NCBI GenBank assembly: GCA_963815115.1
Contig: CAWFFN010000005.1
Coordinates: 1,632,001-1,696,000 of the forward strand
Direction: 5' to 3'
Origin: an uncultured delta proteobacterium
GTDB taxonomy: Bacteria > Desulfobacterota > Binatia > DP-6
Length of the DNA: 64,000 nt
The position numbers and the translations under genes were made by a program. Below, piece by piece: positions 24,377 to 44,400 of this stretch. Below the pieces are notes generated by a model, which saw nothing but the letters and a program-made list of their open reading frames with translations, made no database searches and was not told where the DNA came from. Positions within the stretch are counted from its first letter, which is position 1, and the number at the start of each line of letters is the position of its first letter.

Positions 24377-25774
24377 ATGACGACGATCTACCGCGACGAC
24401 CAGGGCGACCTCGCCATGCTGCGCGACCGGCGCGTGGCGGTGGTGGGATACGGCAACCAGGGGCGCTCCTGGGCGCTCAACCTGCGTGACTCGGGCTGCG
24501 ACGTCGGCGTGTACGTACGCGACGACGCGACGCGCGGGCGCGCCCTGGCCGACGGCTTCTCGATCGGCGAGGTCGAGGAGGCGAGCGCCGCCCCGGTGGT
24601 CTGCGTGCTGGTGCCCGACGACGTGATCCCGAGGCTGCCGCTGGTCCGCCCCGACGACGGCCTCACCATCGTGGCGAGCGGGTACTCGCTGGCGTTCGGC
24701 GGCTTCGCGCCCGCCGGCGACGTGGGTCTGATCGCGCCGCGCATGCTGGGGCCGGAGGTGCGCCGGTGCTACGTGGAGGGCGGCGGGTTCATCACGGCGC
24801 TCGGCGTGCACGAGGATCGTACCGGGCACGCCCTGGAGCGCGTCCTCGCGGTCGCCAAGGCGATCGGCGGGCTGCGCCAGGGGGCGATCGAGATGACGCC
24901 GCACCAGGAGGCACTCCTCGATCTCGCCGTCGAGCAGGCCCTGTCGCCGATCCTGACGCATGCCAGTGGGGCATTCGTCATGGCGCTCCTCGAGCGCGGC
25001 ATCCCGATCGAAGCCATCCTCACCGAGCTCTATCTGTCGGGCGAGGTCGAGCGGAACTACCGGCTCCTGCGCGAGGAGGGATTCGTGCGCCAGCTCGACT
25101 ACCACTCGCCGACCAGCCAGTACGGCCAGCTGTCGCGGCGCGGCGCGTTCGATCACCTCGACGTGCTGTCGCGCATGCGCGATCTGATGGACGACATCGC
25201 TTCGGGTCGCTTCGCCGCCGAGTGGGACGCCGAGAGCCGGGCCGGCCACCCGCGACTGGCGGAGCTCCGAGCCCTGCACGCCGGTCCGGGAGCGCGGGAG
25301 TTCGAGGACTCGGTGCGCCGGTCGCTCGGCCTGACCGCGGCTGCTCCGTCCGCGCTGCGCGACCGCCGCGAGGCAGTCGTCCGCGAGCACATGGAGTCGG
25401 AGAACCGCCAGGACTTCGCCGCCACCCTCGCGACGTTCGCGCACCCGCGCTACGAGATCGTGCCCACGGACCAGGTGTTCGACGGCGCGGAGGCCGTACG
25501 GCAGTACTACGCGGCGTCACGGGCGGCGTTCCCGGACCAGCGCAACGAGCTGCGCACCCTCCGGCACGCCGACGACGCGGTGATCGTCGAGTTCGATCTG
25601 CTCGGCACGCATCGCGGGACGTTCCTCGGTACACCGCCGACGGGTCGCGACTTCCGCTGCCCGATGGTCGCGCTCTTCGTCTTCGAGAACGGCGGCGATC
25701 GCCTCACCTGCGAGCGGGTCTACTTCGACGCCGCCACCGTCCTGCGCCAGCTCGGTCTCGCCGCCACCCCCTAA
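24377..25774 (+). CDS. Ketol-acid reductoisomerase (IlvC)-like protein fused to a C-terminal SnoaL-like/ester cyclase domain
   Basis: VVGYGNQG...ALNLRDSG, IAPRMLG, EALLDLAVEQ, SPTSQYG. C-terminal HMESEN...AAFPDQRNE...GTHRG...PPTGR...ERVYFD. Confidence 0.8.
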   Translation: MTTIYRDDQGDLAMLRDRRVAVVGYGNQGRSWALNLRDSGCDVGVYVRDDATRGRALADGFSIGEVEEASAAPVVCVLVPDDVIPRLPLVRPDDGLTIVASGYSLAFGGFAPAGDVGLIAPRMLGPEVRRCYVEGGGFITALGVHEDRTGHALERVLAVAKAIGGLRQGAIEMTPHQEALLDLAVEQALSPILTHASGAFVMALLERGIPIEAILTELYLSGEVERNYRLLREEGFVRQLDYHSPTSQYGQLSRRGAFDHLDVLSRMRDLMDDIASGRFAAEWDAESRAGHPRLAELRALHAGPGAREFEDSVRRSLGLTAAAPSALRDRREAVVREHMESENRQDFAATLATFAHPRYEIVPTDQVFDGAEAVRQYYAASRAAFPDQRNELRTLRHADDAVIVEFDLLGTHRGTFLGTPPTGRDFRCPMVALFVFENGGDRLTCERVYFDAATVLRQLGLAATP

Positions 25775-27051: not shown

Positions 27052-27954
27052 TCAGACGACCCCGGCGCAGCCGAGGTGGCCCATCGGCCGGGCCCGGTAG
27101 CCGTCGGTACGCGTGTCGAGGTAGCGTCGCTGAATCTCGGGGGGATCGAGCTGCTCGATCAGCGTCCATCCCGTTGCCTGCAGGTCGGCCTCCAGGGTGG
27201 TGGGATCGAGACCCGTGATGATCGGCTCGCCGACCGCACGAGCACGCTCCAGCGTCTTCCGACCGCGCTCTGATCCGGCCCCGGAGAGCGCCTGCGGATG
27301 GATGAAGTCGAATATCAGCTCGCTGCCGCTCGCGGCGACCGTTCGCACGGCACGCCACGTGTCGTCGATCGCGACGCGCGTGAGGTACATGGTGACCCCG
27401 AGCCATGAGAAGATCGCCGGTTGCTCGGCGCGGAACGGGAGGCGGCCGAGCGCATCGGCGACGCTCTCGCGCTCGAAATCGACCACCCCGAAGTGAAGGT
27501 TGGGCGGATCCGTGAGACCGGCGGCGGCGAGGCGCGCCCGCTTGAACGCCTGGCTCCGGGGATGGTCCAGCTCGAAGACCTGGACCCGGTCGCGCACGTC
27601 GGCGCGCCGGAAGGCGAAGGTGTCGAGCCCGGCGCCGATCAGAACGTACTGGCTCACCCCGCGGTCCACGGCCATCGCGAGCCGATCCTCGCTGTAGCGA
27701 GCGCGGGCCAGCACGAGCGAAGCGGGGGTGGTCAGGCGCAGCGCGCGCGCCAGCACGGCGTGCGGATCCCCGGGCGGGAGCCCTGCCTCGAGCCCGTCGC
27801 GCGTGCGCCGGTCCTCGAACGCCGCCATCTCGGCCGGGGTCAGCAGCCGGTGTGCGTAGGGGTCGTCCAGAAGCTTCGGCTCGTCGTGCAGATGGTGCTG
27901 CGCCCGGTAGAACGCCGCGGCGAGGGCGGTCTTGCTGTACTGGCCTGTCTGCAT
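27052..27954 (-). CDS. SAM-dependent methyltransferase (LCM/TIGR00027 family)
   Basis: SKTA..AA..RA, DDPYA, QYVLIGAGLDT, VFELDHP and WLGVTMYL motifs. Confidence 0.9.
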   Translation of the reverse strand: MQTGQYSKTALAAAFYRAQHHLHDEPKLLDDPYAHRLLTPAEMAAFEDRRTRDGLEAGLPPGDPHAVLARALRLTTPASLVLARARYSEDRLAMAVDRGVSQYVLIGAGLDTFAFRRADVRDRVQVFELDHPRSQAFKRARLAAAGLTDPPNLHFGVVDFERESVADALGRLPFRAEQPAIFSWLGVTMYLTRVAIDDTWRAVRTVAASGSELIFDFIHPQALSGAGSERGRKTLERARAVGEPIITGLDPTTLEADLQATGWTLIEQLDPPEIQRRYLDTRTDGYRARPMGHLGCAGVV

Positions 27955-28060: not shown

Positions 28061-29215
28061 ATGGGCCGACGGGTCCTGCTCGTGCAGCTGTCGCTGCAAC
28101 CGCCGGGAGGTGGCAACGGCGTCGCTGCGTGGTTTCTCCAGGCGCTCGCGCGCGAGCATCGGGTGACCGTCCTCTCGTGGTGGCCAGTCGACGTCGCGCC
28201 CATCGACCGGTTCTTCGGCACCAGCCTGCGCGAGGTCGGGTTCGACACCCTCGGCCCGCCGCCCGCCTGGGTGACGATGCTGGACCGCCTCCCGATTCCG
28301 GCGAGTCTCCTCAGAAACGCGCTCCTCATGCGGTTCACCCGGCGGGTGAGCTCGCGCTACGAGGTCGTGCTGGGCGTGCACAACGAGGCCGACTTCGGCC
28401 GGCGCGGCATCCAGTACGTGCACTACCCGACCTACCTGCGCCCACGCCCGCGCGTCGACATGCGCTGGTACCACCAGTCGCGGCGCCTGCTGGACGGCTA
28501 CTACCGGCTCGCGGATCGGGCGGCCGGCCTGTCGTTCGACCGGGTGCGCTCGAATCTCACGCTCGCCAACTCCGACTGGACCGCGCGGCACGTGGAGCGG
28601 CTGCTCGGCGTGCCGGCACGCACCGTCTACCCACCCGTGGCCGATCCCGACCCGCCACCGCCATGGGAAGAGCGCGCGCGCCGCTTCCTCCTCGTCGGTC
28701 GCATCTCTCCGGAGAAGGAGATCGAGCGCGCGATGCGGATCGTTGCCCGCGTGCGGCGCCAGGCTCCGGGCGTCGAGCTGACGATCGTGGGCACCTGCGA
28801 CGCCCGGGCGCGGCGCTATCATCGCAGGCTCACCCGCCTCGCCGCGTCGCTCGGTCCGTGGATCACGTTCCGCGAGAACCCGTCACGGGAAGCGCTGCGT
28901 GCGCTGATGGCCTCGTCGCGCTACGGCATCCACGGCATGCGAGAGGAGCACTTCGGCATGGCGCCGGCCGAGCTCGTGCGGGCGGGGGCGCTCGTCTGGC
29001 TCGGACGCGGCGGCGGCCAGGTCGAGATCGTCGGCGGCGAGGACGCGCTCCTGTACGACACCGAGGAGGAGGCGGCCGAGAAGATCACCACCGTGCTGGC
29101 GAACCCGGCGGAGGAGCGGCGGCTGCGCGAGCATCTCCGTGCGCGCGCGGAGCGGTTCGCCCCGGCCCGCTTCGTCGACGAGGTGCGCGAGATCGTGGCG
29201 GCCTTCGAGACCTGA
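28061..29215 (+). CDS. GT4 glycosyltransferase
   Basis: YVHYP, ANSDWT, VYPPV, GRISPEK and EEHFGMAPAE motifs. Confidence 0.85.
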   Translation: MGRRVLLVQLSLQPPGGGNGVAAWFLQALAREHRVTVLSWWPVDVAPIDRFFGTSLREVGFDTLGPPPAWVTMLDRLPIPASLLRNALLMRFTRRVSSRYEVVLGVHNEADFGRRGIQYVHYPTYLRPRPRVDMRWYHQSRRLLDGYYRLADRAAGLSFDRVRSNLTLANSDWTARHVERLLGVPARTVYPPVADPDPPPPWEERARRFLLVGRISPEKEIERAMRIVARVRRQAPGVELTIVGTCDARARRYHRRLTRLAASLGPWITFRENPSREALRALMASSRYGIHGMREEHFGMAPAELVRAGALVWLGRGGGQVEIVGGEDALLYDTEEEAAEKITTVLANPAEERRLREHLRARAERFAPARFVDEVREIVAAFET

Positions 29216-29216
29216 C

Positions 29217-31793
29217 ATGGGCGGCGCACGCCTCCGGTGGCCCGCTGCGCTGCTCGCCGCGGCTGCGGTGGTCGCAGTGACGTGGATCCGCCAGCGGCCG
29301 CTGGGACTCCACGGCCTCGACGTCCATGCGGCGGCCGAGGTGCGGGACCGGCTGGCGGGAGCGAGGCATCTCGACGACGCGGCCGTCGATGCGTGGATCG
29401 CCGAGCATCGGGCGCGTTACGCCCGCAAGGTGGCGTCGACGCGGGACCGGCTGGCGCGACCCTATACGTACAGGGCCCAGGACGGGCGCGACCACGTCTA
29501 CCTCGGGGACTACGACAGCTATCTGTGGCTGCGGCGCGCGCGGCAGTACCTCCGGGCGGGAACCACCTGCGACGCCGTGGCGCACGGAGACTGCCGGGAC
29601 CTCCACACGCTGGCGCCCGTCGGCGGCTCGATGCGCTACGGGCGATCGATCCACATCGCGGCGATCGTTGCCGTGCAGCGGATCGCGGCGCGGCTCCGGC
29701 CGGGCTGGCCGCTGCCGTCGAGCGCCATGCTCGTCCCGATCATCGTGGGCGCGCTCGGCGTGCTGCCCGCATTCGCGCTCGGCCGCCGGCTCGCGGGCGA
29801 CGCGGGCGGTCTGTGCGCGGCGATCGTCGGCGGGACCAACGCCGTGTTCCTCGGACGCAGCATCGGCGGTGACGACGACGTGTGGAACGTCGTGCTGCCG
29901 CTCGCGGTCGTGTGGGCCGTCTCGGCCGCACTCGAAGCACGTCGCCCGATCGCATGCATGGGCTTCGCGGCGCTGGCGGCCGGGTTCCAGGCAGTGCACG
30001 CGCTCAGCTGGCGCGGGGCGCTGGTCACGTGGGGCGTGGTGGTCGGAGCGCTCGCCCTCGACGTCGCCGTGTCCGCGGCGCGCGCGCTCGGCCCCCGGCA
30101 CCGTGCAGCGGCGACCGGCGCGCTCGGTCGCACGAGTCTGACGCTCGTCGTGCTCTGCCTCGCCGGTCTCGGGCTCGCCGCCTTGCGAGGCGAGGCGCGC
30201 GCCTTCCTCCGCGTGCCACTGGACGCGCTGACCGCGCTCGTCGGTCCGGGGAACGTGCCGGCCCCGTCCGGCGAGCATTGGCCGGACACGCTGGCGACGG
30301 TCTCCGAGCTGTCGCACTCCGGCCTCGCGGGTATCGCGAGCGGCGTGGGCGGCGCGCTCTTCTGCTTCGTCGGCTGGCTCGGCCTGCTCCTGCTGGTGCT
30401 CCCGCGCCGGAACTGGGGACCGGCCCACTTCGCCGTGCTCATCGCGGGAACGCTCCTCTATCGCGGGCTGCTGGCAGCGCCCGAGATGAGCCGGGCGATC
30501 CTGCTGGGGCTCGTCGCGCTGCCGCTGGTCGCCGCGCTGGTCGTGTCCATCGGTGAGGATGACGACGACCAGGAGCGCGCTACCCGGCTGCTCGTCGTGG
30601 TGTGGTTTCTCGCCACGTTCCTGCTCGCGTGGGAATGGGTGCGCTTCACGATCCTGCTCGTGGCGCCGTTCGCGCTCGCGTTCGGCGTCGCGCTCGGCCG
30701 CCTGACGTCGTGGTTCGAGGAGGCGGCTGGTCCGTGGCGTCCGGCCGCGCGAGTGGCCGGCTGGCTCGTGGTCGCGGCCGTTCTCCTGCAGCCGCTCCGG
30801 AACGGACTCGACGCTGCGGACGCTTATCTGCCGCGCATGCGGGACGCCTGGTGGGACGGCCTGACCCGGCTCCGCCGCGAGGCGTCCGAGGACGCGGTCG
30901 TCGTCGCGTGGTGGGACTACGGCTACTTCGTGGAGTACGTCGCCGAGCGGGCGAGCGCGGCCGACGGGAGCACGCTCCTCACGCACGCGCCGCACTGGAT
31001 CGCCCGCGCGCTCCTCGCCCAGAGCGAGCGCGAGAGCGCGGGTCTGCTCCGCATGATCGCCTGCGGCTCGGACGCGTCGCCGCACCCGGAGGGCGCGCGG
31101 GGCGCATGGGGAAAGCTGGTCGCCCACGGCATCGACGGCGGGACCGCACACGATCTGGTCATCGCCGTGGCCAGCCTCGATCGAGCGGCCGCAGCCGGGC
31201 GCCTCGGGGCGGCGGGCCTCGATGCGGCCGCGGTCGAGGACGTTCTCGCCTCGACGCACTGCACGCCTCCGCCGACCTACGTTGTGCTGAGCAGTGCGCA
31301 GGCCGCAGCGACGACGTGGACCGTGCTCGGCTCCTGGAGTGACGAGCCCGAGGCGCTGGAGCTGTCGGGCGATGCCACGCCCTGCCGTCCCGACGGCCAT
31401 GGCACCCGCACGTGTGCCGTGCGAGCGGCGCTCGCGGATTCGCTGATCGAGCGCTTCGTCTATGCGGAGGCCGACCCGGCGGCGGGGCGGTTCGTGGTCC
31501 AGTCCTTCGACGGCGGGCCAGCGCGCGAGATGGCGCCGGCGGTCGTGATGCTCGCGGCCGGCGGTCAGGTGCGATCGCTCGAGCCGTCAGCCGCCGATCG
31601 CAGCCCGGTGGGAGTGCTCCTCAACGTCGAGCATGCCCGCGCCGTGGTGGGGACGCCGGCGTTGCTGCGCTCCACGTTCGCTCGCCTGATGTTTCTCGGC
31701 GACGGCGCGGGGAGCCCGTTCGAGCAGGTCGACGAGCGGACGGCGGCCGGCGAGCGGGTCGTGACCTGGCGAGTCCGCTACTTTCCCGATTGA
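29217..31793 (+). CDS. STT3-family oligosaccharyltransferase (PglB/AglB)
   Basis: DYDSY, RSIGGDDD (DxD), TVSE (TIXE/SVSE-like) and WWDYGY motifs. Multi-TM N-terminus with a soluble C-terminal domain. Confidence 0.9.
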   Translation: MGGARLRWPAALLAAAAVVAVTWIRQRPLGLHGLDVHAAAEVRDRLAGARHLDDAAVDAWIAEHRARYARKVASTRDRLARPYTYRAQDGRDHVYLGDYDSYLWLRRARQYLRAGTTCDAVAHGDCRDLHTLAPVGGSMRYGRSIHIAAIVAVQRIAARLRPGWPLPSSAMLVPIIVGALGVLPAFALGRRLAGDAGGLCAAIVGGTNAVFLGRSIGGDDDVWNVVLPLAVVWAVSAALEARRPIACMGFAALAAGFQAVHALSWRGALVTWGVVVGALALDVAVSAARALGPRHRAAATGALGRTSLTLVVLCLAGLGLAALRGEARAFLRVPLDALTALVGPGNVPAPSGEHWPDTLATVSELSHSGLAGIASGVGGALFCFVGWLGLLLLVLPRRNWGPAHFAVLIAGTLLYRGLLAAPEMSRAILLGLVALPLVAALVVSIGEDDDDQERATRLLVVVWFLATFLLAWEWVRFTILLVAPFALAFGVALGRLTSWFEEAAGPWRPAARVAGWLVVAAVLLQPLRNGLDAADAYLPRMRDAWWDGLTRLRREASEDAVVVAWWDYGYFVEYVAERASAADGSTLLTHAPHWIARALLAQSERESAGLLRMIACGSDASPHPEGARGAWGKLVAHGIDGGTAHDLVIAVASLDRAAAAGRLGAAGLDAAAVEDVLASTHCTPPPTYVVLSSAQAAATTWTVLGSWSDEPEALELSGDATPCRPDGHGTRTCAVRAALADSLIERFVYAEADPAAGRFVVQSFDGGPAREMAPAVVMLAAGGQVRSLEPSAADRSPVGVLLNVEHARAVVGTPALLRSTFARLMFLGDGAGSPFEQVDERTAAGERVVTWRVRYFPD

Positions 31794-32212
31794 CGGACCG
31801 CGAGCGTGCAGAAGGTCTTCGACTTCTTGAGCGCCAGCGAGCCGTTGAACGGGAAATCGAGGGCGCCGACTCCCACCGTCGCTCCCGGGAACTTCGGCGT
31901 GCCCGAGTCGTCCTTGATGCTGAAGCAGACCAGGCTCAGCGCCGTATCGTTGGAGCCTCCGTTGTTGATGGGGTCGCAGTAGAGGACGGGCTTGAGGGCC
32001 TGCCCGGTCGTGCCCTGGAGGGTGCCGTTGAAGATCATGTCGACCGGCACGAACTTCGGCGAGCCCTTGGGCGGCTTCCCGGGGTAGCAGCGCCATCCCT
32101 GCGGGGCGATCTGCGTGGACGCGGTGTCCGTCCAGAGCAGCGACAGAACCGTTGCCGCGACCACGACGGCGGCGCACACGGCCCACGCTGGCCGGCGGCG
32201 GGTTCCTTCCAT
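31778..32212 (-). CDS. Small secreted Cys-containing hypothetical protein
   Basis: GGAGGA SD, signal peptide, 4 Cys in the mature part. Confidence 0.6.
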   Translation of the reverse strand: MEGTRRRPAWAVCAAVVVAATVLSLLWTDTASTQIAPQGWRCYPGKPPKGSPKFVPVDMIFNGTLQGTTGQALKPVLYCDPINNGGSNDTALSLVCFSIKDDSGTPKFPGATVGVGALDFPFNGSLALKKSKTFCTLAVRQSGK

Positions 32213-32279
32213 CGCTCGTCCTCCGTAGGCCGAGGTATCACGGCGCGGCTATTCGTGTCCAGGAGAATCCGGGGATGGA

Positions 32280-34052
32280 TCATCCCTCGGCGGCGGCCAG
32301 GTGCCGGAAGGCAGCGTTGTCGCTCAGGAGGTCCTCGTAGCGGCCCTCGGCGGCGATGCGGCCATCGGCGAGCAGGACCAGGCGATCGCAGCAGCGGACG
32401 CTGGTCAGGCGGTGCGCGACGACCACCAGCGTGAGGACCCCGCGCAGCGGCTCGATGGCGCGCAGCAGCTCTGCCTCCGTGTGGTTGTCCAGCGCCGCGG
32501 TCGCCTCGTCGAACACCAGGACGTGGGGCCGGTGGTACAGCGCGCGCGCGATCCCGACTCGCTGGCGCTGCCCGCCCGAGAGACGGGCGCCTCGCTCGCC
32601 GACGGTGGTGGCGAGCCCCTGGGGCAGGCCCGCGACGAACTCGTCGAGCTGCGCCATGCGCACGACCTCACCCACCCGCTCCTCGTCGACGGCATCGTCC
32701 GCGACGCCGAGCGCGATGTTGCGGCGCAACGAGTCGTCCACGAGCGCGACGGTCTGCGGCACGTACCCGATCGCACGTCCCCAGGCGCGGCGGACCTCAC
32801 GGAGATCGCGCCCGTCGATCGTGATGCGGCCGGCCGTCGGGGAGAGCAGTCCGCAGAGCAGGTCCACGAGCGTGCTCTTGCCCGCGCCGGTCGCACCGAC
32901 GACGCCGACCGATTCGCCGCGCCGGATGGTGAGGTCGAGATCGGCCAGCGCGGGTCCCGGTGCGCCATCGTAGGCGAACGACGCGTTTGCCAGCACGATC
33001 GCGTTGCTGAAGGGAAGCGGTGCCCCGCCGGCGTCGCTGGCGAGCGCGGGAGCGGCGCCGGCCAGGTCCGCGTGCAGCGCGCGCACGGACGCCCCGCCGG
33101 CCCGGATCTCGTTCACCAGCATGAGGATGCGGTTGGCGGAGGGAATCACGCGAAAGCCCGCGTAGGCGTAGAGTCCGAGCAGCGGGACGACGTCCGGGCC
33201 GGGTCTGCCGAGGCGAACGAGTGCCACCACGACCGCCAGCGCCCCGAGCACGAAGACCGATTCGACCAGCACCCGGGGCAGGGCCGCGAGGGTGTCGGTC
33301 AGGTGCCGGACGCGCGCCAGTGCGTCCTGGCTGCGGGCGAACTGGCGGAAGAAGAAGCTCTCGCGGCCGAGGACCTTGATCTCCTTCACGGCGCCGAGGG
33401 TGGCCTGCACCCCTCCCAGCATGTCACGCTCCAGCGCGTACGTGCGCTCGCCCCAGCGGCGGGCGCGCGCCCGCGTCGCGTGCAGCAGGATCGCGCCCGT
33501 GGCGCCGAGCGCGAGCACGAGCCCGAGCGTCATGGCGGGTGACGTGAAACCGAGGACGGCCGTGATGGCGAGGACGACGAGCATCTCGGTGGCCACGGTG
33601 ACGGCGGGCGCGAGCACCCGGCGGCAGACGTCGTCGGCGCCGGTGGTGACGTTGTGGATGAGCTCGGCCGAGTTGCGGCGGAGGTGAAAAGGGTAGGGCG
33701 CTCCCAGATAGACGGCGAGCGCGCGGCGCGCGATCTCGGCGCGTCCCTCGGCCACGCGTGCGGTCTGCACCCACGCCTGCCAGACCTGGAAGGCGTTCTT
33801 CGCCAGGTAGAAGAACGCCAGCAGGACCGTGAAGATCACCACGGTTCCACGCCAGTCGCCTCCGGCGAGCGCCGCGACCACGGGCAGGCGGCCTGCCGCC
33901 GCCGGATCCCCCACGATGCGGATGAGCACGTAGAGGGCGGCCGCGCCGAGCGCCTCCGCTCCCGCGGCGGCGAGCGACAGCGGCACGAGCGCCGCCCACT
34001 GCCGTCGCATGGCGGGTGGCAGAAGCGCGAGGGCGTTCCGGATGGTGGTCAT
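32280..34052 (-). CDS. ABC transporter, PglK/WlaB-like lipid-linked oligosaccharide flippase
   Basis: PY.FHL.RNSAELI, GATGAGKST, LSGGQRQR and FDEATAALD motifs. Translationally coupled to the ALG1-like gene. Confidence 0.85.
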   Translation of the reverse strand: MTTIRNALALLPPAMRRQWAALVPLSLAAAGAEALGAAALYVLIRIVGDPAAAGRLPVVAALAGGDWRGTVVIFTVLLAFFYLAKNAFQVWQAWVQTARVAEGRAEIARRALAVYLGAPYPFHLRRNSAELIHNVTTGADDVCRRVLAPAVTVATEMLVVLAITAVLGFTSPAMTLGLVLALGATGAILLHATRARARRWGERTYALERDMLGGVQATLGAVKEIKVLGRESFFFRQFARSQDALARVRHLTDTLAALPRVLVESVFVLGALAVVVALVRLGRPGPDVVPLLGLYAYAGFRVIPSANRILMLVNEIRAGGASVRALHADLAGAAPALASDAGGAPLPFSNAIVLANASFAYDGAPGPALADLDLTIRRGESVGVVGATGAGKSTLVDLLCGLLSPTAGRITIDGRDLREVRRAWGRAIGYVPQTVALVDDSLRRNIALGVADDAVDEERVGEVVRMAQLDEFVAGLPQGLATTVGERGARLSGGQRQRVGIARALYHRPHVLVFDEATAALDNHTEAELLRAIEPLRGVLTLVVVAHRLTSVRCCDRLVLLADGRIAAEGRYEDLLSDNAAFRHLAAAEG

Positions 34053-35316
34053 CACGCCAGGTCCGGAACGAGCACCGGGCGGGCCGCTGCCGTCCAGGCG
34101 TCCGCCCAGCGCTGATCCGTCTCGCGTGCCACGCCTGCCCGGAGGCGGTCGAGCAGCGCGGCCTGATCGGGGAACCCATCGAGAACGCGGCGCAGGCACT
34201 CCACCAGCTCCTCGGCGCTGCGGAAGAGGAGGGCGTTGTCTCCCTCGCGTGCGAGCTCGCCCAGACACGGTCCGTAGTCGAACGCCACGACGGGCACCCC
34301 CGCGCCGAACAGGTCGGCCACCTTCATCGGGAGGTCGAGTCCCGACGCCGAGCGGTGCAGGCAGAGCCCGAGATCGGCCGCGCCGAGGAATCGGCGATAC
34401 TCCGCGGAGGGCAGCCACAGGGTGCGCAGGTGAACCCGCTCGAGCCGGAGCGCCGCGAAGCGGCGCTCGTAGTCCGCCCTGAGCGGTCCCTGACCCGTGA
34501 CCACGATCGCGAGCCGCGCCCGCGTCGTCCCGACGCGCCGGTCCCACTTGAGGGCGGCGTCCACGAGCAGCTCGAAGTCCTCGTCGGCCGTCCAGCTGGT
34601 CGGACTGACGACGAGTGCCGGGCGTCCCTCGTCACCGTCGCCGGCGAGTCCGGGGAGGTCGAGGCGTAACGCCAGCTCGTCGAGCACTGCTCGCCGGTCG
34701 TCGGGAAGGAGCGGCTCGAAGCCCGCGCCGGGCCGGTCACGAAAGACCGTCGCACGACCGACCTTCCAGCGGACGAGCTCGGCGGCGAGCGCGCGCGAGA
34801 CGCAGAGATGCGCGTCCGCGCATCGTCCGAGGCCCCGTTCGAGACCGCGCGACGAGACCGACCAGGGGGTGTCGCGGGCCCAGGCGCAACGCCAGCATCG
34901 CCCAGCCGAGGTTGTGCCAGTCGACGACCAGGCGGGCGCTCCGGATGCGGCAGACGGCGAGCGCCACCACGAGCGCCGGGATCGTGGGCGGGTTCTGCAC
35001 CAGGATCACGCTGCGGGGCTCGACGGTGCCGGAGAGCGTCGCGAGGAGCGCGGCGGCTGCGCGGACGGCGTTCCAGAGGGCGACGGCCAGGAAGAGCGGG
35101 CGGGGCAGCCCGTGGCGTCGGGCGCCAGCCGGCGCCGCGAGGATGTGCACCACGACGCGGGGGTCGTTTGCGATCTCGGACGGGATACTCGGTCTCCTCG
35201 TAGCCCACGAGGTGCACGTCCGCGCCGCTGTCGGCCAGCGCACGTGCGTGGTACAGCATCCGCGGGCTGCGCCCCAGATCCCCCAGCACCACCACGGTCA
35301 CGCGGAAGCGAGGCAT
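34052..35316 (-). CDS. ALG1-like beta-1,4-mannosyltransferase (GT33), interrupted by two +1 frameshifts (about 35190 and 34844)
   Basis: VVLGDLGRSPRMLYHA, LVQNPPTIP, VDWHNLG, LCVSRAL, SPTSWTADEDF, VTGQGP and GLCLHRSASGLDLPMKVADLFG match eukaryotic ALG1 hallmark motifs across three frames. Confidence 0.85.
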
Positions 35317-36460
35317 GGAGACGGCCGGTGTCATAGCCCACCCGCCGCGGACGCTCCACGGGCGCCGCATCGCCATCGCGGGGGGTGGAACCGCGGGCCA
35401 CGTGCAGCCGGCGCTCGCCGTCGCCGAGGCGTACCGCGCCGCGGTGCCCGACGTCGAGGTCCTCTTCCTGGGGACGCCGACCGGAGCCGAGAGCCGGCTG
35501 GTGCCGGCGCACGGCCATCGGCTCGCGACGGTGACGGCGGCGCCGTTCTTCGGCGTCGGACCGGTCGGCCGGCTGCGCAGCGTCACGGCGCTGGCTGCCG
35601 GCGCCGCGCAGGCGCGCCGCGTGCTGCGCGCCGAGGGGATCGAGCTCATCCTCGGCCTCGGCAACTTCGCAGCCGCCGGCGCAGTCCTGGGCGCCCGGAC
35701 GCTCGGACTCCCCACCGTGATCCACGAGGCCAACGCCGTGGCGGGGGTGGCGAACCGGCTGCTCGGCCGGCTGGTCGATCGCGTGCTGCTCGGCTTCGCC
35801 GACGCCGCGCCGGCCTTTCCACGCGGCGCGACACTGCTCACCGGCACGCCGGTCCGGGCCGCGCTCGGCGGGCTGGCGACCTCGCGCGAGACGCGTGCCC
35901 CGGGAGCGATTCGACTCCTCGTCCTCGGCGGATCGCAGGGCTCGCCGTTCCTGAACGCGCGCGTGCCGGAGGCGGCGGGGCGCGTGGCGGGTCGCGGGCT
36001 CGCGGTGGAGGTCTGGCACCAGACCGGCCGTGGCGACACCGATCCGGTGCGCGCCGACTATCAGCGCAACGGCGTGCCCGCCCGCGTCGTGTCATCCCTC
36101 GACGACATGACGGACGCCTACCGCTGGGCAGACATCGCGATCGCGTGTGCCGGTGCAGTCACGCTGGCCGAGCTGGCCGTCGTCGCGCTCCCGGCGCTCC
36201 TGGTGCCGCTCGCGACGGCGGCGCTCGACCACCAGCGCGCGAACGCGAGCGCCTTCGCCGCTGCCGCCGGCGTATGGTGGACGGGCGAGAACGCCTGGGA
36301 TGCGACCGTCGTCGAGGAGCGGCTCGCCGCGCTGGTCGCCTCGCCGGATGAACGGCGCACTGCCAGGATACGGATCGCCGCCGCGGCCAGGCCGGAGGCG
36401 GCTGCCGACGTGGTGGCGGCCTGCGAGGCTCTCCTCCGGTCGGCCGGTGCGCGCAGGTGA
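35315..36460 (+). CDS. MurG-like GT28 UDP-GlcNAc transferase (outside a dcw cluster)
   Basis: AGGGTAGHVQP, IHEANAVAG.ANR, TGTPVR, LGGSQG, AGAVTLAE and HQ..NA motifs. Confidence 0.88.
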   Translation: METAGVIAHPPRTLHGRRIAIAGGGTAGHVQPALAVAEAYRAAVPDVEVLFLGTPTGAESRLVPAHGHRLATVTAAPFFGVGPVGRLRSVTALAAGAAQARRVLRAEGIELILGLGNFAAAGAVLGARTLGLPTVIHEANAVAGVANRLLGRLVDRVLLGFADAAPAFPRGATLLTGTPVRAALGGLATSRETRAPGAIRLLVLGGSQGSPFLNARVPEAAGRVAGRGLAVEVWHQTGRGDTDPVRADYQRNGVPARVVSSLDDMTDAYRWADIAIACAGAVTLAELAVVALPALLVPLATAALDHQRANASAFAAAAGVWWTGENAWDATVVEERLAALVASPDERRTARIRIAAAARPEAAADVVAACEALLRSAGARR

Positions 36461-36467
36461 CGAGGGC

Positions 36468-37517
36468 TCACCGGGAGCCGCGCGCGCGCAGCCATCGCGC
36501 CGTGACGGCGATGGCGAGCACGGCGCCGCCGACGGCGGCGATCGTTGCGGGGCGTCCGGCGACGACGGCGACGACGGCGACGGCGCCGAACGTGGCGCAA
36601 ACCCCGTAGAGGAGCAGCACGGCGCCGCGGTGGCTCATCCCGTCGCCGAGCAGGCGGTGATGGATGTGTCCCTGGTCCGCCCGCGCGATGCCCCCGACAC
36701 CGGCGGCGAGCACGCGCCGCAGCACGGCCAGCGCCGTGTCTGCGACGGGGAGCCCGAGGGCCAGCACCGGTGCGAGCACGACGACGGCGGTCGCGCTCTT
36801 GGCCAGCGACTCCAGCGCGAGAATCGCCATCGTGTAGCCGATGAGCAGGCTTCCCGTGTCTCCCAGGAAGATCGAGGCGGGCGGAAAGTTGTAGGCGAGG
36901 AACCCGGCCAGTCCACCGCCGAGGGCAGCCCACATGCCGGCGGCGTCGTACCGCCCCTCGGCCAGACAGACCAGGCACAGCGCCGTCGCGGCGATCGCAC
37001 CGGTGCCGGCGGCGAGACCGTCGAGGCCGTCGATCAGGTTGATGGCGTTGGTGATGGCGACGATCCAGGCGACGGTGAGCACGCCACCGGCGCCGCCGAG
37101 GTCGAGCCAGTGTCCGGTGAAGGGATTGGTGAGACCCTCGAGGGTGTAGCCGCCGGCGACGGCGAGCGTGGCGGCGAGCACCTGGAGGGCGAGCTTGGGG
37201 GCGACCGGGAGCCCGGCCAGGTCGTCAGCCACGCCGATTGCGACGATCACCGTGAAGCCCGCGATCAGCAGCCCCGGGGTGCGCCCTGGCGCAGCCAGCG
37301 CGTGGAGTGCGCTGCCCCCCGCGAGCCCGTCCAGGACGAGCGCGCCAGCGACGGCGACGAGGACCGCCAGTCCGCCGAGCCGCGGAGTGGGGCGGACGTG
37401 CACGCGGCGCGGACCTGGATCGTCGACGGCCCCGATGCGCCTGGCGGCGGCGCGCACCACGGGAGTGACCAGCAGAGCGAGCGCTGCCGCGGTCGCGGCG
37501 AGGATCAGGTATTCCAC
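36468..37517 (-). CDS. wecA: Polyprenyl-phosphate GlcNAc-1-phosphate transferase (WecA/TagO; MraY/ALG7 superfamily)
   Basis: D.PG.RRVH..PTPRLGG, G..DD, NAINLIDGLDGL, YNFPPASIFLGDTGS and DQGHIHHRL motifs. Confidence 0.9.
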   Translation of the reverse strand: MEYLILAATAAALALLVTPVVRAAARRIGAVDDPGPRRVHVRPTPRLGGLAVLVAVAGALVLDGLAGGSALHALAAPGRTPGLLIAGFTVIVAIGVADDLAGLPVAPKLALQVLAATLAVAGGYTLEGLTNPFTGHWLDLGGAGGVLTVAWIVAITNAINLIDGLDGLAAGTGAIAATALCLVCLAEGRYDAAGMWAALGGGLAGFLAYNFPPASIFLGDTGSLLIGYTMAILALESLAKSATAVVVLAPVLALGLPVADTALAVLRRVLAAGVGGIARADQGHIHHRLLGDGMSHRGAVLLLYGVCATFGAVAVVAVVAGRPATIAAVGGAVLAIAVTARWLRARGSR

Positions 37518-37646
37518 CGTCGCTCACCCGCCCCAGACGAGGGTGCTACCACCGCCCCGCCGGCGCACGCCACCGCGGGTGAGGCGGCGCGTGCTGGTCT
37601 TGCCGGCGGTGCCGAGGTAAGCGGGCGAGTGCCGGCAAGAGACCGC

Positions 37647-38528
37647 GTGCCGCGCCTGCCGCGCTCCAGGATCGCGCTCCGCCACTACGCCCTCGTGAGC
37701 GCCCCTGCGTTCGTGGCATCGCGCGTGCTCGATCGGCTGGTGCGGCCGCGGGTCTATCTCGGCGACCATACCCTGATGACCCGGACGGTCTTCGGTCACG
37801 TCCTCTACCTGGACACACGCGACGACAGCCTGTTGCCGGCGCTCGCCCTGCGCGGGGTCTGGGAGCCGAACGTCACGCGTGTCTTCCTGCGCCTGCTGCG
37901 GCCCGGCATGCGAGTGGTCGAGATCGGAGCGAACGTGGGCTACTACACCGTTCTGGCGGGCTCGTGCGTCGGCCCGTCGGGCAGCGTGGTCGCCTTCGAG
38001 GCCAATCCGCGCGCCGCGGAGCGCCTGCGACGCGCCGTCATCGTGAACGGCTACCAGTGGTGGACGCGCGTGGTCGTGTCGGCCGTCGCGGACCGCCAGG
38101 GTCGGGCGACGCTCCACCTGCTCGAGCGCCAGCAGGGAAGCTCGAGTCTCTTCCCGCGAGGCGACGCGTACCTCGAGCACCACGCCGAACAGGCGAGCCC
38201 GCTCGAGGTGCCCGTGACCACGCTCGACGGGTTTCTCGGGCCAGACCCCGCGCCGATCGATCTGCTGAAGATCGACGCGGAGGGCACCGAGCCGTTGATC
38301 TTCGCGGGCATGAGCGAGCTGCTCGCGCGCAGCCCGCATCTGCGCGCGGTGATCGAATTCGCCCCGCCGCTCATGGCGAACGCCGGGCGCGACGCGGGAG
38401 CATTTCTCGACACGCTCGCGTCACTCGGCTTTCACATCGACGTGATCGACGCGCGCGGCGGCCTTTGCACCGCGACGACCGCGCAGCTCCTCGCCGCCGA
38501 ATCGAGCGAGCTGCTGCTCTCGCGCTGA
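37647..38528 (+). CDS. FkbM family methyltransferase
   Basis: WEP..T, EIGANVGYYT, AFEANP and LKIDAEG motifs. Start uncertain. Confidence 0.88.
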   Translation: MPRLPRSRIALRHYALVSAPAFVASRVLDRLVRPRVYLGDHTLMTRTVFGHVLYLDTRDDSLLPALALRGVWEPNVTRVFLRLLRPGMRVVEIGANVGYYTVLAGSCVGPSGSVVAFEANPRAAERLRRAVIVNGYQWWTRVVVSAVADRQGRATLHLLERQQGSSSLFPRGDAYLEHHAEQASPLEVPVTTLDGFLGPDPAPIDLLKIDAEGTEPLIFAGMSELLARSPHLRAVIEFAPPLMANAGRDAGAFLDTLASLGFHIDVIDARGGLCTATTAQLLAAESSELLLSR

Positions 38529-38534
38529 GCGCGC

Positions 38535-40025
38535 TCAGAGATCGAACGCGGCGCTCAGGTCTCCCATCCCTCGCCGCACGCCCGGCAGCGGCTCGAGATC
38601 GAAGCGGCGCGTGATGAACTTCAGGATCGAGGTCGTGTCGTAGCGGGTGTGATCGACGAAGCCGCGCCGGGCGAAGGGCGAGATGACGATGGTGGGGATG
38701 CGGGTGGCCGGCCCCCAGCGGTCGCCCGCGGGCGGCGGGACGTGATCCCAGAAACCCCCGTTCTCGTCGTAGGTGACGATGATCGCCGTGCTCTGCCAGA
38801 GCGGGCTCGCCTGGATGCGCGCGACGATCTCGGCGATGTGCCGGTCGCCCGGCAGGATCGTGGTGTAGCCGGGATGCTCGTTCAGGCTGCCCTCGGGCTT
38901 GTAGAAGGCGACCTGGGGCAGGGCGCCCGAGTCGATGTCCGCCAGGAGCTGGTGGAGGTCCTTCAGATGATCGGTGCGGTCTGCCGTGCCGGGAGCGAAG
39001 CGCGCGAAGTAGTTGAACGGCTGGTGATGGGGCTGGAAGTTGACGGGGTTCTCGTAGATCACGCTGCGCTTGACGTCCGGGGGCTGCATCCCGTCTCTGG
39101 TAGCGGCTTCCCAGGCTCCCGCGTACCAGGCCCACGAGATTCCCCTCGCGGACAGCGTGTCGCCGATGGTCTTCTGACGCTGGGGCGGTAGCGGATGCTT
39201 CGACGGATCCGCGAGGCGCGGATCGCCGCCGGGCGCGGGAGGAATCTGGCTGGGCTGGAACGGCGGCTGCTCGGTGTTCACGGCGTATCCGTCGGGCGTC
39301 ACGCTGCCGTCGAAGAGAAACGGCGGCCCCGACATCGCGGAGGCCGGGGAGCCGGGTCTGGCGAGCAGCTCCCCGTTCTGGTCGAGCATCACGCGCACCG
39401 ACCACGGCGCGTCGGGATCCACGGGCGTGCACGCGCAGACGAGCCAGAAGTGGTTCAGGAACGACCCGCCGAATGCGCCCATGAAGAAGTTGTCGGCCAG
39501 CGTGTACTGGCGTGCCAGGGCCCACATCGGCAGCGTCGCGCCGTCGTAGTAGCCCATGGGCAGGGCGCCGCCGTCGGACATCGCGACGTACCGGTCGAGC
39601 TTGCCGCCGTCGATCTGCGCCCGGTTCTGGTAGTAGCGATGGACGAGATCCCGCGTCCGCTCCGCGATGGACCGGTTGATCGGCGCCGCGTCGATGCGGA
39701 ACGTCGCGTTCGGAAGGTTCGTCGGAAAGGTGGGATCGGGCACGTTGCCATTCCACACCGGTCCGGGAGCGCTGGGCTTCCATACCGGCGGGAGCACCGG
39801 CAGCGGCTTGCCGTCGCGATCGACCTGGATGGTTCGCCTGGCGTTGCCGATCCCGTTGGCGCCCGGGAACAGGCCGTAGAGGTGATCGAAGCTGCGGTTC
39901 TCGGCGTAGATGACGACGATGTGCTGGATCGCGTCGAGTCGCCTCGGCCCCTGGCCGGCTCGATACGGCGAGCACCCGGCGAGGGACAGGAGGGCCAGGA
40001 GGAGGAGACGGAAGACCAGGCGCAA
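38535..40025 (-). CDS. acpA: Acid phosphatase AcpA / phosphoesterase (phospholipase C family), predicted lipoprotein
   Basis: VVIYAENRSFD, DNFFMGAFGGSFLNH, NEHPG and TYDENGGFWDHV motifs. Lipobox LAGC. Confidence 0.88.
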   Translation of the reverse strand: MRLVFRLLLLALLSLAGCSPYRAGQGPRRLDAIQHIVVIYAENRSFDHLYGLFPGANGIGNARRTIQVDRDGKPLPVLPPVWKPSAPGPVWNGNVPDPTFPTNLPNATFRIDAAPINRSIAERTRDLVHRYYQNRAQIDGGKLDRYVAMSDGGALPMGYYDGATLPMWALARQYTLADNFFMGAFGGSFLNHFWLVCACTPVDPDAPWSVRVMLDQNGELLARPGSPASAMSGPPFLFDGSVTPDGYAVNTEQPPFQPSQIPPAPGGDPRLADPSKHPLPPQRQKTIGDTLSARGISWAWYAGAWEAATRDGMQPPDVKRSVIYENPVNFQPHHQPFNYFARFAPGTADRTDHLKDLHQLLADIDSGALPQVAFYKPEGSLNEHPGYTTILPGDRHIAEIVARIQASPLWQSTAIIVTYDENGGFWDHVPPPAGDRWGPATRIPTIVISPFARRGFVDHTRYDTTSILKFITRRFDLEPLPGVRRGMGDLSAAFDL

Positions 40026-41482: not shown

Positions 41483-44400
41483 TCAGGGGAGGCCGGCGCC
41501 GTGCTTGCCCTTCGGCTGCAGGCTCAGCCGACCCGCCGCGCACTGGCTCCCGGTGTCGATCGTGATCTCCACCGGCGACAGCAGTGGACTCCCGGGCTTC
41601 ATCCGCCCGAGGATCACCGTCGCCTTCGCCGGTCCCGTCCTGGGCACCACCAGGCGAACGCATTTGATGGGCGGGCAGAGCGTCATCCGCTGGTCGAAGA
41701 ATCCGTACGTCTGGTGGAAGAGCTTCTGCCACTGCTGCGTTCCGATGGTGCAGCAGACCTGCTCGCCCGAATCGGCGCGGATCTGCACGCGCACGTCCTG
41801 GGCGCGCGGGTCGACCCCGGCGAACGCGCCGGGGGCCAGCGTGGCCGTGGCGCGCAGCGTGGACTTCCCCGGGCGGAAGCGTGCCTGCGTGAAGGTGAGG
41901 GACTGGGCCGTGCAGCACGCCGGGTCCTCGGCGTCGACGAGCCCGTTCTGGTCGTCGTCGATGCAGTTGCCGCAGTCCTCCGGCGTCAGGCCCGGGGTTG
42001 CGACGGTCGCGGTGTCGTCGGAGGGATTCGGATCGGGCTCCGTGGCCGTCACGGTGGCCGTGTTGCTGAACGCGTTGTCGTTCGCGCGCGTTCCGACGAT
42101 GGCCACGGTCGCGGTGGCACCCGACGCGAGGTCGCCGAGGACGCACGTGACGACCTGCACGGCGGTGGTGCAGGTGCCCTGGCTCGGCGTCAACGTACCC
42201 GGGGTCACGGCAGAGGGCAGGGGATCGACCACGGTGACGTTCGTCGCCTTCGCCGGACCCGCGTTGGTGACCGTGAGCGTATAGCTGAGCGCCTCGCCGT
42301 TCCTCGGCTGCGCCGGGCTGACGCTCTTCGTGAGGTGGAGGTCGGCCTGCGCCGGAACGGTCGTCTGTGCCGTGGCGCCGTTGTTCGTCGCGACCGGGTC
42401 GGGCTGATCGCTCCTGACCGTCGCGGTGTCGACCAGCGCGCCGGACGCACTCGGCAGGACGCGCACGACGATGGTGGCCGTCAGCGTACCGCCGCTCGCG
42501 AGGCTGGCGACCGTGCAAGTGATCGGGTTGCCGCCGGTGCAGGCTCCGGCGCTCGCGGTGGCGGACACGAGCTGGACGCCGGCCGGTAGCGTGTCGGTGA
42601 GGAGCACGTTGCTCGCCGAGGCCGGGCCGTGGTTCACGACCCGCAGGGTGTAGGTGACCTGGGTACCGGATGCTGCGCTCGTGGGCGTGCCGGTCTTGCT
42701 GACCTCGAGATCGGCGTCGGTCGGTGGTGGAGGCGACACGAGCCCGACCTCCGTGGTGACGCTGCCGGTGTCGTCGGACGCATCGGGATCTGGAGTCGAG
42801 CTTGCCACCGTGGCGCTGTTCACGACCTCGGTGGCCTCGGGCAGCACGGTGTAGGTCGCGACGATGGTGCGCGAGCCGCTCGGCGCGATCGTCCCCAGCG
42901 CGCACGGGAACGCGGTCATGCAATCGCCGCCGTTGGACACGAAGGCGAGACCCGGCGGCGTCGGGTCGGTCACCACCACATCGGTCGCGGTCGACGCCCC
43001 CGCGTTGCTCACCACGATGGTGTAGGACACGCGCTCTCCGGGGAACGCGCTCGCCGGGCCGGCCTTCGTCACGCCGAGGTTCGCCGAGGATGTGAGATCC
43101 GTCGAGTCGGTGGCGTCGTCGCTCGTCGGGTCGGGATCGACGGTCCCGGTGGGCGCCCGCACGCTCGCGGTGTTCGTCACCGCGCCCGTGGCATCGGGCG
43201 GCACCGTGGCGGTCGCGATGAACGTGGCGCCGCCGCCGGCCGGCAGATCGACGGTCGTCGCGATGGCCCCCGTACCGCCGGGGGTGCCGCAGCTTCCGCC
43301 AGGAGTCGCGCTGCACGACCAGCTCGCGCCCGTCAGCGGCCCCGGGAAGGTGTCGCCGACTGGCGCCCCGGCGACGTCGCTGGGTCCGGCGTTCTGGACG
43401 GTGATGGTGTAGGTCAGCGGGGCGCCGGGAAGAGCCAGCGTCTGGCCGTCGGTCTTGGTGATGGAGAGGTCGGCGACCAGCGCCGTCGTGCCCGGTACGC
43501 TGCTCGCGTCGTTCGCCGGGTTGGGGTCGATCTCGTTCCCGGCGGTGCGGCTGGCGGTGTTCGTGAAGGAGCCCAGCCTGGTGACCCGTGCCGTGATGGA
43601 GAGGATGGCCGAGCGGGTGGCCGGGAGGTTGCCGACCGTCCACGTGCCGGAGTCCTCGTCGTAGGTGCCCTGCGACGCCGGGGCCGACACGACGGCAAAC
43701 CCGGGCGGCAGCAGGTCGGTGACCACGACGCCGGTGGCTGGGCTCGGCCCGTGGTTGGTCGCGGTGACCGTGAAGCTGACCTGGCCTCCGACCGCCGGCG
43801 AGGCGGTGCTGATCGTCTTGCCGACGTCGATGTCGGCGGTGGCGGCGGCGTTGAGCGACAGGCTCGCCTGGTCGTTGAGCGGGTTGGGGTCGATCTCGGT
43901 CTGGCCGGTCTTCCGCGCCACGTTGACCAGCGTGCCCGTCGTGTTGACCGACGCGACGACGGTCAAGGTGGCCGACGTCGAGGCGGTGAGGTCCCCCACC
44001 GTCCAGATGCCGCTGGCCGCGTCGTAGGTGCCCTGCGACGGAGCGGCCGATGTCAGCGCGAGGCCTGCCGGCAGCGCGTCCTGCACCTCGACGCCGGTGG
44101 CGTCGCTCGGCCCGCGGTTGGTCGCGGTCACGGTGAAGGTGACGCTCTCGCCGACCGAGGGTGTCGTCTTGTCGGCCGTCTTCTGGACGGCCACGTCGGC
44201 CGCGGCGGCGACGTTGATGGTGGCGGCACCCGACTCGTTGCCCGGGTTGGGGTCGGGCTCGTTGCCGCCCGTGCGAATGGCGAGGTTGGTGATGTCGCCG
44301 GGCTGCGTCACCTGCGCCTGGATCGTCAGCTCGACCGACTGGCCGGCGGCGAGGGCGGAGATCACCCACTCGCCGCTCGAGTCCGTGTAGGCGCCCTGCG

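Follow-up and report, generated by a model that had tools for sequence, protein, structure and literature searches.

A gene cluster at positions 28061-38528 of the window, a 64,000-nucleotide stretch of contig CAWFFN010000005.1 (positions 1,632,001 to 1,696,000) from an uncultured soil bacterium of the class Binatia, probably encodes oligosaccharyltransferase (OST)-dependent protein N-glycosylation. The lipid-linked glycan would start in the eukaryote-like order N-acetylglucosamine, N-acetylglucosamine, mannose (GlcNAc-GlcNAc-Man). An initial annotation had named seven genes, for a GT4 glycosyltransferase, an STT3-family OST, an ABC exporter, an ALG1-like mannosyltransferase, a MurG-like GT28, a WecA-like transferase and an FkbM-family methyltransferase, and all seven were confirmed in this interval. 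Because the G+C content of the window is 72%, the genes were called from third-position GC (GC3) and frame plots, and then with Pfam. The reading was built on gene families, motifs, fold, linkage and co-occurrence; whereas every substrate and acceptor named below is predicted.

In the proposed pathway, the WecA-like protein, which clearly belongs to its family, would put GlcNAc-1-phosphate, the predicted sugar, on undecaprenyl phosphate. The dedicated MurG paralogue might then add the second GlcNAc to give a chitobiose-PP-lipid (PP, diphosphate), as its co-occurrence pattern and the analogy to Alg13/14 and Agl24 suggest. The ALG1 homologue would add a beta-1,4-linked mannose, an activity in print for a Binatia homologue and not for this gene. 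The GT4, which carries an EX7E motif, probably extends the glycan, and the FkbM protein may methylate one of its sugars. The translationally coupled ABC exporter, the presumed flippase, would flip the lipid-linked glycan, and STT3, with the fold and motifs of an OST, would transfer it to Asn of exported proteins. The cluster appears to be an accessory cassette, patchily distributed among several soil phyla, and the two insertions in its ALG1-like gene may stem from assembly error or from inactivation in the very recent past.

Oligosaccharyltransferase and MurG paralogue

The STT3-family gene (29217-31793, plus strand, 858 aa) is single-copy in this genome. The protein scored 60.6 bits against PF02516 (cut-off 24.5) and 32.8 bits against STT3-PglB_core, and the WWDYG motif claimed in the initial annotation was read in the translation at residues 565-569. 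PF02516 matched none of ten bacterial control genomes; the four positives among the 14 controls were all archaea. In an alignment of 20 STT3 sequences, D100, D219, W566 and G569 are invariant and D119 is nearly so. D100, D119 and D219 presumably correspond to the catalytic residues of solved OSTs.

An AlphaFold model built from the same alignment had a predicted local distance difference test score (pLDDT) of 86.1 and a predicted template modelling score (pTM) of 0.87. Its best fold match in the PDB was PglB (E 1.6e-15, TM 0.64 by target), followed by human STT3A, AglB and yeast STT3. The top 19 Foldseek matches were all PglB, STT3 or AglB chains; whereas DPY19, ArnT and PMT came far lower. 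The model is consistent with the GT-C fold of an OST, and acidic residues are conserved both in the DxD region and in the first of the external loops. The sequence matches to solved OSTs were weak (E about 1e-3) and alike for AglB, eukaryotic STT3 and PglB. The protein is not a PglB equivalog by NF050801 (22.8 bits against a cut-off of 1300), and the archaeal STT3 subfamily model scored higher, at 43.9 bits.

The MurG-like GT28 (35315-36460, plus strand) is one fused protein of 381 aa with both MurG domains. Three PF03033 matches were found in this genome: the murG of the dcw cluster, the GT28 considered here, and a GT1 of the macrolide-glycosyltransferase type. The dcw murG adjoins ftsW and scored 296.2 bits against TIGR01133, above the cut-off of 250.25; whereas the cluster GT28, which lies outside the dcw cluster, scored 243.1 bits and fell just below it. 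The initial annotation had allowed that this GT28 might be the only murG of the genome, which is not the case. Similar values were obtained for the other cluster-linked copies (234-250 bits, against 266-308 for housekeeping MurGs). The motif GGTAGH retains the GGxGGH-type histidine. Only PF03033, PF04101 and a weak PF13579 were matched in Pfam; neither an Alg14 domain (PF08660) nor the split Alg13/Alg14 architecture was found. The GT28 may act like Alg13/14 by analogy, although it is not a member of that family.

A maximum-likelihood tree was reconstructed from 38 GT28 rows, including 31 ALG1-linked GT28s and five housekeeping MurGs taken from the same genomes or from related ones. The 31 linked proteins formed one group (support 100/99) apart from the five housekeeping MurGs, and two Myxococcota rows sat on the housekeeping side. 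The rows from Verrucomicrobiia and ‘Proteobacteria’ nested among the Binatia rows, which fits cassette transfer between lineages.

Conservation of the gene association

Among 40 relatives and this genome, STT3 was found in five genomes, the ALG1-like gene in six, and both in five. Four relatives share the gene set at 38-62% identity, except that GT28 is missing from one of them, G037, and the ALG1-like orthologue was intact in all four. In a sample of 121 Binatia-class genomes of at least 90% completeness, the ALG1-like gene was present in 18 and STT3 above the cut-off in 28; both were present in 16, the ALG1-like gene alone in two, STT3 alone in 12, and neither in 91. Thus STT3 occurred in 16 of the 18 genomes with the ALG1-like gene and in 12 of the 103 without it, and 11 of the 16 pairs lay within 10 kb on one contig. 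These genomes are related and not independent, and the counts are given without a test statistic. STT3s without an ALG1-like gene occur, for example, in G072, G120, G093, G121, G086, G038, G114 and G079, and eight of the 12 were strong matches. Other types of N-glycan probably exist in the class.

A wider scan with the ALG1-like profile, with one genome per species, found 167 relatives; 80 loci were kept, and 41 of them had the full 10 kb on both sides. They came from Binatia, Acidobacteriota/Vicinamibacterales, Rokubacteria/Methylomirabilota, Myxococcota, Verrucomicrobiia, Bryobacterales, Latescibacterota and other taxa. Within the available flanks, ABC exporters were found at 47 loci, WecA at 44, a GT4 of the window's kind (type A) at 41 and GT28 at 34; the ALG1-like gene stood without any other cassette gene at 12. 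An iterative profile search (jackhmmer) placed an STT3-family open reading frame (ORF) within 10 kb of the ALG1-like gene at 28 loci. The string W[WF]DxG was present in 19 of these 28 STT3s, and the other nine were cut at contig ends or had variant motifs. Among five genomes whose locus had scored STT3-negative by tblastn at 1e-8, STT3 was found inside the locus in two, elsewhere in two, and not at all in one.

GT28 tracks STT3 across these loci: STT3 was present at 25 of the 34 GT28-positive loci and at three of the 46 GT28-negative ones, and only one of the 28 full-flank loci without STT3 had a GT28. Since PF02516 was absent from all the bacterial controls and STT3 lay near 28 of the 80 ALG1-like genes, the grouping of the cluster genes is far beyond chance. 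The association proposed in the initial annotation is kept both in relatives and across phyla.

A GT4 of the ALG2 type was also found at 22 of the 80 loci, directly beside the ALG1-like gene. Its signatures, a G-rich loop (GIGGAER) and an EX7E motif (EHFGIVPLE), were used as given in a preprint (10.1101/2025.10.15.682550), and the locus proteins carry a GIGGAER-type loop and EHFG-VPLE. Examples are L023:11152-12465 (on the same contig as L018), L028, L035, L039, L041, L043, L053, L065, L071 and L077. STT3, GT28, ALG1-like, ALG2-like and ABC genes are combined at 13 loci, nine of which also have WecA.

A second type of cassette, also conserved, has its genes in the order ABC, type A GT4 (about 60% identical to that of the window), WecA, ALG1-like, with no GT28 or STT3 within 10 kb. 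It was seen at L067, L074-L076, L078-L082, L087-L092 and other loci, mostly of Vicinamibacterales/Acidobacteriota; one genome with this type, G044, has an STT3 on another contig.

The ALG1-like gene and the readings of the cluster

The family of the ALG1-like protein was assessed with the intact orthologue of the relative G006, which resembles eukaryotic ALG1 over its full length, in sequence and fold, more than generic GT4 enzymes. As lead-grade evidence, the nearest ESM Atlas clusters of this orthologue included a eukaryotic ‘chitobiosyldiphosphodolichol beta-mannosyltransferase’ (cosine 0.98-0.99, TM 0.91-0.95). JGI names many members of the family beta-1,4-mannosyltransferase; a sequence search of the PDB with the family profile gave no match. 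The genes for GDP-mannose synthesis are present in this genome. The initial claim of an ALG1 equivalent stood as regards likeness, eukaryotic ALG1 clusters being the nearest in the Atlas; whereas the copy in the window is frame-broken.

Two +1 single-base insertions, near 35190 and near 34855, split the ALG1-like ORF (34052-35316, minus strand) over three frames, as was seen in the translation, in tblastn matches and in the DNA at the sites. Three abutting tblastn segments span residues 1-409 of the 412-residue G006 orthologue with 71%, 59% and 62% identity, as high as the identities of the cluster neighbours to their orthologues. When X was placed at both breaks, the window copy was found to retain all 55 of the columns in which conservation reaches 95% or more among 83 family rows. 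GC3 stays near 0.9 in each of the three segments. The retained positions and the neighbour-level identity indicate that the gene is either truly intact or was inactivated very recently, and from sequence these two cases appear about equally likely.

Frame breaks were also screened for elsewhere, by comparing this genome with 191 long ORFs of a same-genus genome (400 kb of sequence), which gave 101 assessable orthologues. Matches in more than one frame were obtained for 11 of them. Five of the 11 were rejected as artefacts (four wrong-frame ORF extensions or spurious ORFs and one large gap); the GC3 check left five credible breaks and one ambiguous case. Four of the five credible breaks are of the same +1 type as in the ALG1-like gene, and the rate is about one per 20-25 kb of the genes sampled. 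Elsewhere in this genome, on another contig, a GMP/PMI gene is likewise split between frames. About five split orthologues in 101, mostly +1, indicate either systematic indel error or a large number of young pseudogenes, and together with the GMP/PMI gene the pattern points to systematic indel error. Because about five in 101 sampled genes are broken in the same way, a dead ALG1-like gene cannot be distinguished from an assembly error. Public sequencing runs say nothing on the two insertions, since the 11 runs listed, with no RNA run among the listings, each contained at most 0.14 of the sampled words, and the four that were mapped gave no cover at either site.

The frame-split sites of this assembly, judged relative to the same-genus genome or to a family model, include C5:883101-883109, C5:923346-923383, C5:924114-924127, C9:207089-207150, C9:1459991-1460012 and C7:64348-64353. 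In a same-genus genome (G002), the mraY match is in two adjacent pieces (G002:C5:562851-563400), which shows that frame breaks are not confined to the assembly of the window.

Bacterial homologues of ALG1 have been described in one preprint (Xu et al., bioRxiv 10.1101/2025.10.15.682550), whose accessible text reports 204 of them found by BLASTp. According to that text, homologues from Binatia, Polyangia and Gammaproteobacteria rescue yeast alg1-delta and make Man1GlcNAc2-PP-Phy, which is accepted by human ALG2, and beta-1,4-mannosyltransferase activity is reported for the Binatia homologue; reliable ALG1 homologues are said to be missing from archaea. The present ALG1-like family is very likely the same, since the labels Binatia, Polyangia, Gammaproteobacteria, Deltaproteobacteria and Methylomirabilota are common to both sets; the identity with individual loci rests on these taxon labels. 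The initial suggestion of a Man-beta1,4-GlcNAc2-PP-lipid core is thereby favoured by the product of the Binatia homologue; whereas the ALG2-like gene that would follow in eukaryotes is absent here.

The cluster contains the same families in the same order as the eukaryotic ALG7-ALG13/ALG14-ALG1-ALG2-STT3 pathway, from an initiator of the MraY/WecA superfamily to a MurG-fold transferase for the second GlcNAc, an ALG1-family enzyme and an STT3 with WWDYG, and many related bacterial clusters hold a GT4 with both ALG2 motifs. However, the genes form one cluster here, the MurG paralogue is fused and not split like Alg13/Alg14, and the flippase would be an ABC exporter. The lipid is presumably undecaprenol, lumenal enzymes of the ALG3/9/12 type are lacking, and this genome lacks an ALG2-like gene but carries another kind of GT4 and a methyltransferase.

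The pgl system of Campylobacter jejuni likewise combines a single-subunit OST with an ABC flippase in one cluster, and PglK and PglB are the best NCBIfam model for the exporter and the best structural match for the OST, respectively. In contrast, the STT3 of the window matches the PglB model less well than the archaeal one, the initiator is of the WecA type, and no PglC-type or bacillosamine genes were found by Pfam among the locus proteins. In crenarchaea, the AglH-Agl24-AglB pathway includes a fused MurG-fold Agl24 with a GGxGGH-type histidine, which makes GlcNAc2 on a diphosphate lipid, as described in the accessible text of Meyer et al. (eLife 2022, PMC8993221). A fused MurG-fold enzyme thus precedes an STT3-family OST in both systems; whereas the GT28 of the window is close to bacterial MurG and not to Agl24. 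In the same text, OST-type bacterial N-glycosylation seemed restricted to Delta- and Epsilonproteobacteria. The Desulfovibrio-type PglB enzymes (Nat Commun 2025, PMC12229607) are likewise OSTs of bacteria that do not belong to Campylobacterota, and their lineages formerly bore the label Deltaproteobacteria, as far as the accessible text goes. The STT3 of the window matches the PglB model very weakly.

In bacteria, homologues of ALG1 and ALG2 are already known, and so, separately, are OSTs. That they are physically linked in several uncultured phyla, together with a WecA-type initiator, a dedicated MurG paralogue and an STT3 other than PglB, was not found in print: literature searches, which covered papers without their supplements, found no paper describing the linkage of ALG1 to an OST and a dedicated MurG paralogue. 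The main text of the preprint has 0 occurrences of STT3, PglB, operon and ‘neighbo’, and the accessible text of PMC12229607 has 0 matches for ‘alg1’ or ‘gene cluster’ and so mentions no ALG1 or MurG-paralogue context.

The interpretation first given to the cluster is partly supported, by the separate murG, the likeness to ALG1, the conserved association and the activity in the preprint. Several observations weigh against it. The ALG1-like gene has no intact ORF in this assembly, and two breaks in one 1.26-kb gene exceed the background of the screen. The GT28 is a MurG paralogue (PF03033 and PF04101) and not Alg14, so the label of ALG13/14 equivalent did not hold at the level of the family. The equivalog cut-offs of WecA, MurG, PglK and PglB were all missed, and the specificities are therefore predictions. 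No gene of this genome has both ALG2 motifs or scored above about 60 bits against an ALG2-like query. The cluster (STT3, ALG1-like) was not found in any of the four same-genus genomes, which indicates that it is dispensable. GT28 is lacking at 46 of the 80 ALG1-like loci, so that ALG1-like enzymes need not always act on chitobiose. Genome-wide, sequons were not enriched (2752 observed, 2640 expected), and a giant DUF11 surface protein encoded nearby, considered as a sequon-enriched acceptor, was rejected, because it has 22 N-X-S/T against 33 expected by composition.

The frame breaks bear most directly on the reading of the cluster as a decaying accessory island, in which the ALG1-like gene is truly dead and the cell would make and transfer no glycan, or at most a truncated one (GlcNAc2, perhaps with an extension by the GT4). 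Two independent +1 frameshifts fall in one gene, while its six neighbours with orthologues in relatives each gave a single unbroken match. At one break per 20-25 kb, two in 1.26 kb are unlikely by chance, and the absence from the same genus also fits decay. However, the conserved positions are all kept, GC3 stays near 0.9, the identity to the G006 orthologue is as high as that of the neighbours, and the mostly +1 breaks elsewhere, together with the split GMP/PMI gene, point to indel error; this island reading is considered rather unlikely. It is quite unlikely, too, that the cluster serves N-glycosylation with a glycan that is eukaryote-like only in its enzyme families, the MurG paralogue or the ALG1-like enzyme, or both, using other donors or acceptors. 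This would suit a GT28 that matches MurG models and not Alg14, a GT4 that is not ALG2-like, and G037, which has an ALG1-like and STT3 cluster without GT28. Of five bacterial ALG1 homologues in the accessible text of the preprint, the two from Deltaproteobacteria and Methylomirabilota showed no activity in either assay, including that on GlcNAc2-PP-Phy; whereas the other three, with the Binatia homologue among them, made Man1GlcNAc2 usable by human ALG2. The 13 loci that join STT3, GT28, ALG1-like, ALG2-like and ABC genes also speak for a eukaryote-like core.

A product other than glycoprotein, such as an exopolysaccharide, a glycolipid or a cell-envelope polymer, with an STT3-like protein of another acceptor or role, is very unlikely, as the motifs and the fold of STT3 indicate. 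WWDYG-type strings are present in most of the locus STT3s, the acidic residues are kept across the alignment, OSTs are the first fold matches with ArnT and PMT much lower, and GT28 follows STT3 closely. Nevertheless, 52 of the 80 ALG1-like loci have no STT3 within their flanks, and the 28 full-flank loci among them still hold WecA (15), ABC (17) and GT4 (15). One of the five genomes searched had no STT3 anywhere, and lipid A and glucans are also among the substrates of such ABC exporters. N-glycosylation with a eukaryote-like core is preferred over these readings.

The meaning of this preferred reading lies mainly in the linkage. It gives the bacterial ALG homologues a native role, together with a WecA-type initiator, a dedicated MurG paralogue, a flippase and STT3, and it extends OST-type N-glycosylation to several uncultured soil phyla. 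The clusters also offer compact natural operons for eukaryote-type N-glycan cores in bacteria. A tentative and rather doubtful extension is that the eukaryotic core Man(1-3)GlcNAc2 is attached to proteins in soil bacteria of several phyla (Binatota, Methylomirabilota, Acidobacteriota, Verrucomicrobiota and others) by means of one mobile cluster, which would be, for the cytosolic part of the pathway in eukaryotes, either a sister or the source on the bacterial side. Such a cluster would comprise enzymes of the ALG7, ALG13/14, ALG1 and often also the ALG2 type, an ABC flippase, and an STT3 distinct from both PglB and AglB. The origin of Alg1 was left unresolved in the accessible text of Lombard (2016, PMC4973528), and Alg1 was assigned to bacteria only in the 2025 preprint, whose accessible text gives no gene context (10.1101/2025.10.15.682550). 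The initial annotation suggested a relevance to the origin of eukaryotic N-glycosylation; since active homologues of ALG1 from bacteria have already been reported, this point has less novelty than was assumed. For this window alone the value is lower, as its ALG1 gene reads broken and an ALG2-like gene is absent.

Other genes of the cluster and its surroundings

The WecA-like gene (36468-37517, minus strand) encodes a polyprenyl-phosphate HexNAc-1-phosphate transferase of the PF00953 family (Glycos_transf_4, 7e-38), which scored 118.7 bits against TIGR02380 wecA (cut-off 326). An HIHH string, presumably tied to GlcNAc recognition, is present. The WecA-like gene is the only PF00953 gene of this genome besides mraY; the same-genus genomes without the cluster have mraY only, which indicates that the WecA-like initiator belongs to the cassette.

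The half-size exporter (32280-34052, minus strand; Pfam ABC_membrane and ABC_tran) has one transmembrane and one nucleotide-binding domain and is PglK/MsbA-like. Its best NCBIfam model was PglK (NF050066, 263.5 bits, below the cut-off of 1000), just above MsbA (253.3 bits). It had been annotated as coupled, which is borne out by the overlap of its start with the ALG1-like stop as TGATG. The start codons of the divergent ALG1-like and GT28 genes overlap head-to-head as CATG (35314-35317), and in the relatives L018, L019 and L020 the gap between the two genes is only about 18-30 nt. As these divergent starts overlap or lie so close, both promoters must sit within the coding region of the partner.

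The type A GT4 gene (28061-29215, plus strand; Pfam Glycos_transf_1, 1.3e-15) stops 1 nt ahead of the ATG of STT3. The protein is a GT-B enzyme of the retaining type and carries the EX7E motif EHFGMAPAE at residue 296 and the G-loop PPGGGNGV; it was rejected as ALG2, since these differ from GIGGAER and EHFGIVPLE. The FkbM gene (about 37629-38528, plus strand) encodes an S-adenosylmethionine-dependent methyltransferase (PF05050, 1.6e-14; TIGR01444, 82.3 bits, cut-off 37.7). GC3 and Pfam showed that a long ORF at 36147-38528 is truly coding only in its final ~300 codons, which are the FkbM gene. Its start is ambiguous, with in-frame candidates between 37629 and 37776. FkbM is also present in the clusters of G006 and G023, and at only two of the 80 surveyed loci.

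A small 144-aa protein (31778-32212, minus strand, GC3 0.90) is encoded 3' of the ABC gene on the same strand, with GGAGGA 8 nt before the ATG. It has a hydrophobic N-terminal segment, four Cys, and three N-X-S/T sequons among its five Asn; the sequon density is 2.1 per 100 aa, against 1.15 at the 99th percentile of the genome. It matched no Pfam or NCBIfam family and is absent from the loci of relatives; the only relatives were paralogues within this genome, with weak matches (E 2e-4 to 0.02). As a lead, this secreted protein is a candidate acceptor or accessory protein.

The cluster is flanked by Pfam-assigned genes for an LCM-type methyltransferase (27052-27954) and an acid phosphatase (38535-40025), which are unrelated to it and not kept beside it in other genomes. 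The same-genus genomes keep the flanking genes, dispersed over different contigs, so that no insertion site can be defined for the island. The DUF11 protein mentioned above is encoded 3 kb from the cluster by a 2923-aa ORF (41483-50254, minus strand) with 19 DUF11 stretches, DUF7507 and a signal-like N-terminus. Farther upstream, the window encodes a protein of 1246 aa that combines CHAT protease, AAA_16 ATPase and TPR domains (16431-20171, minus strand), and a ketol-acid reductoisomerase (KARI_N and KARI_C) fused to a C-terminal SnoaL-like domain (24377-25774, plus strand).

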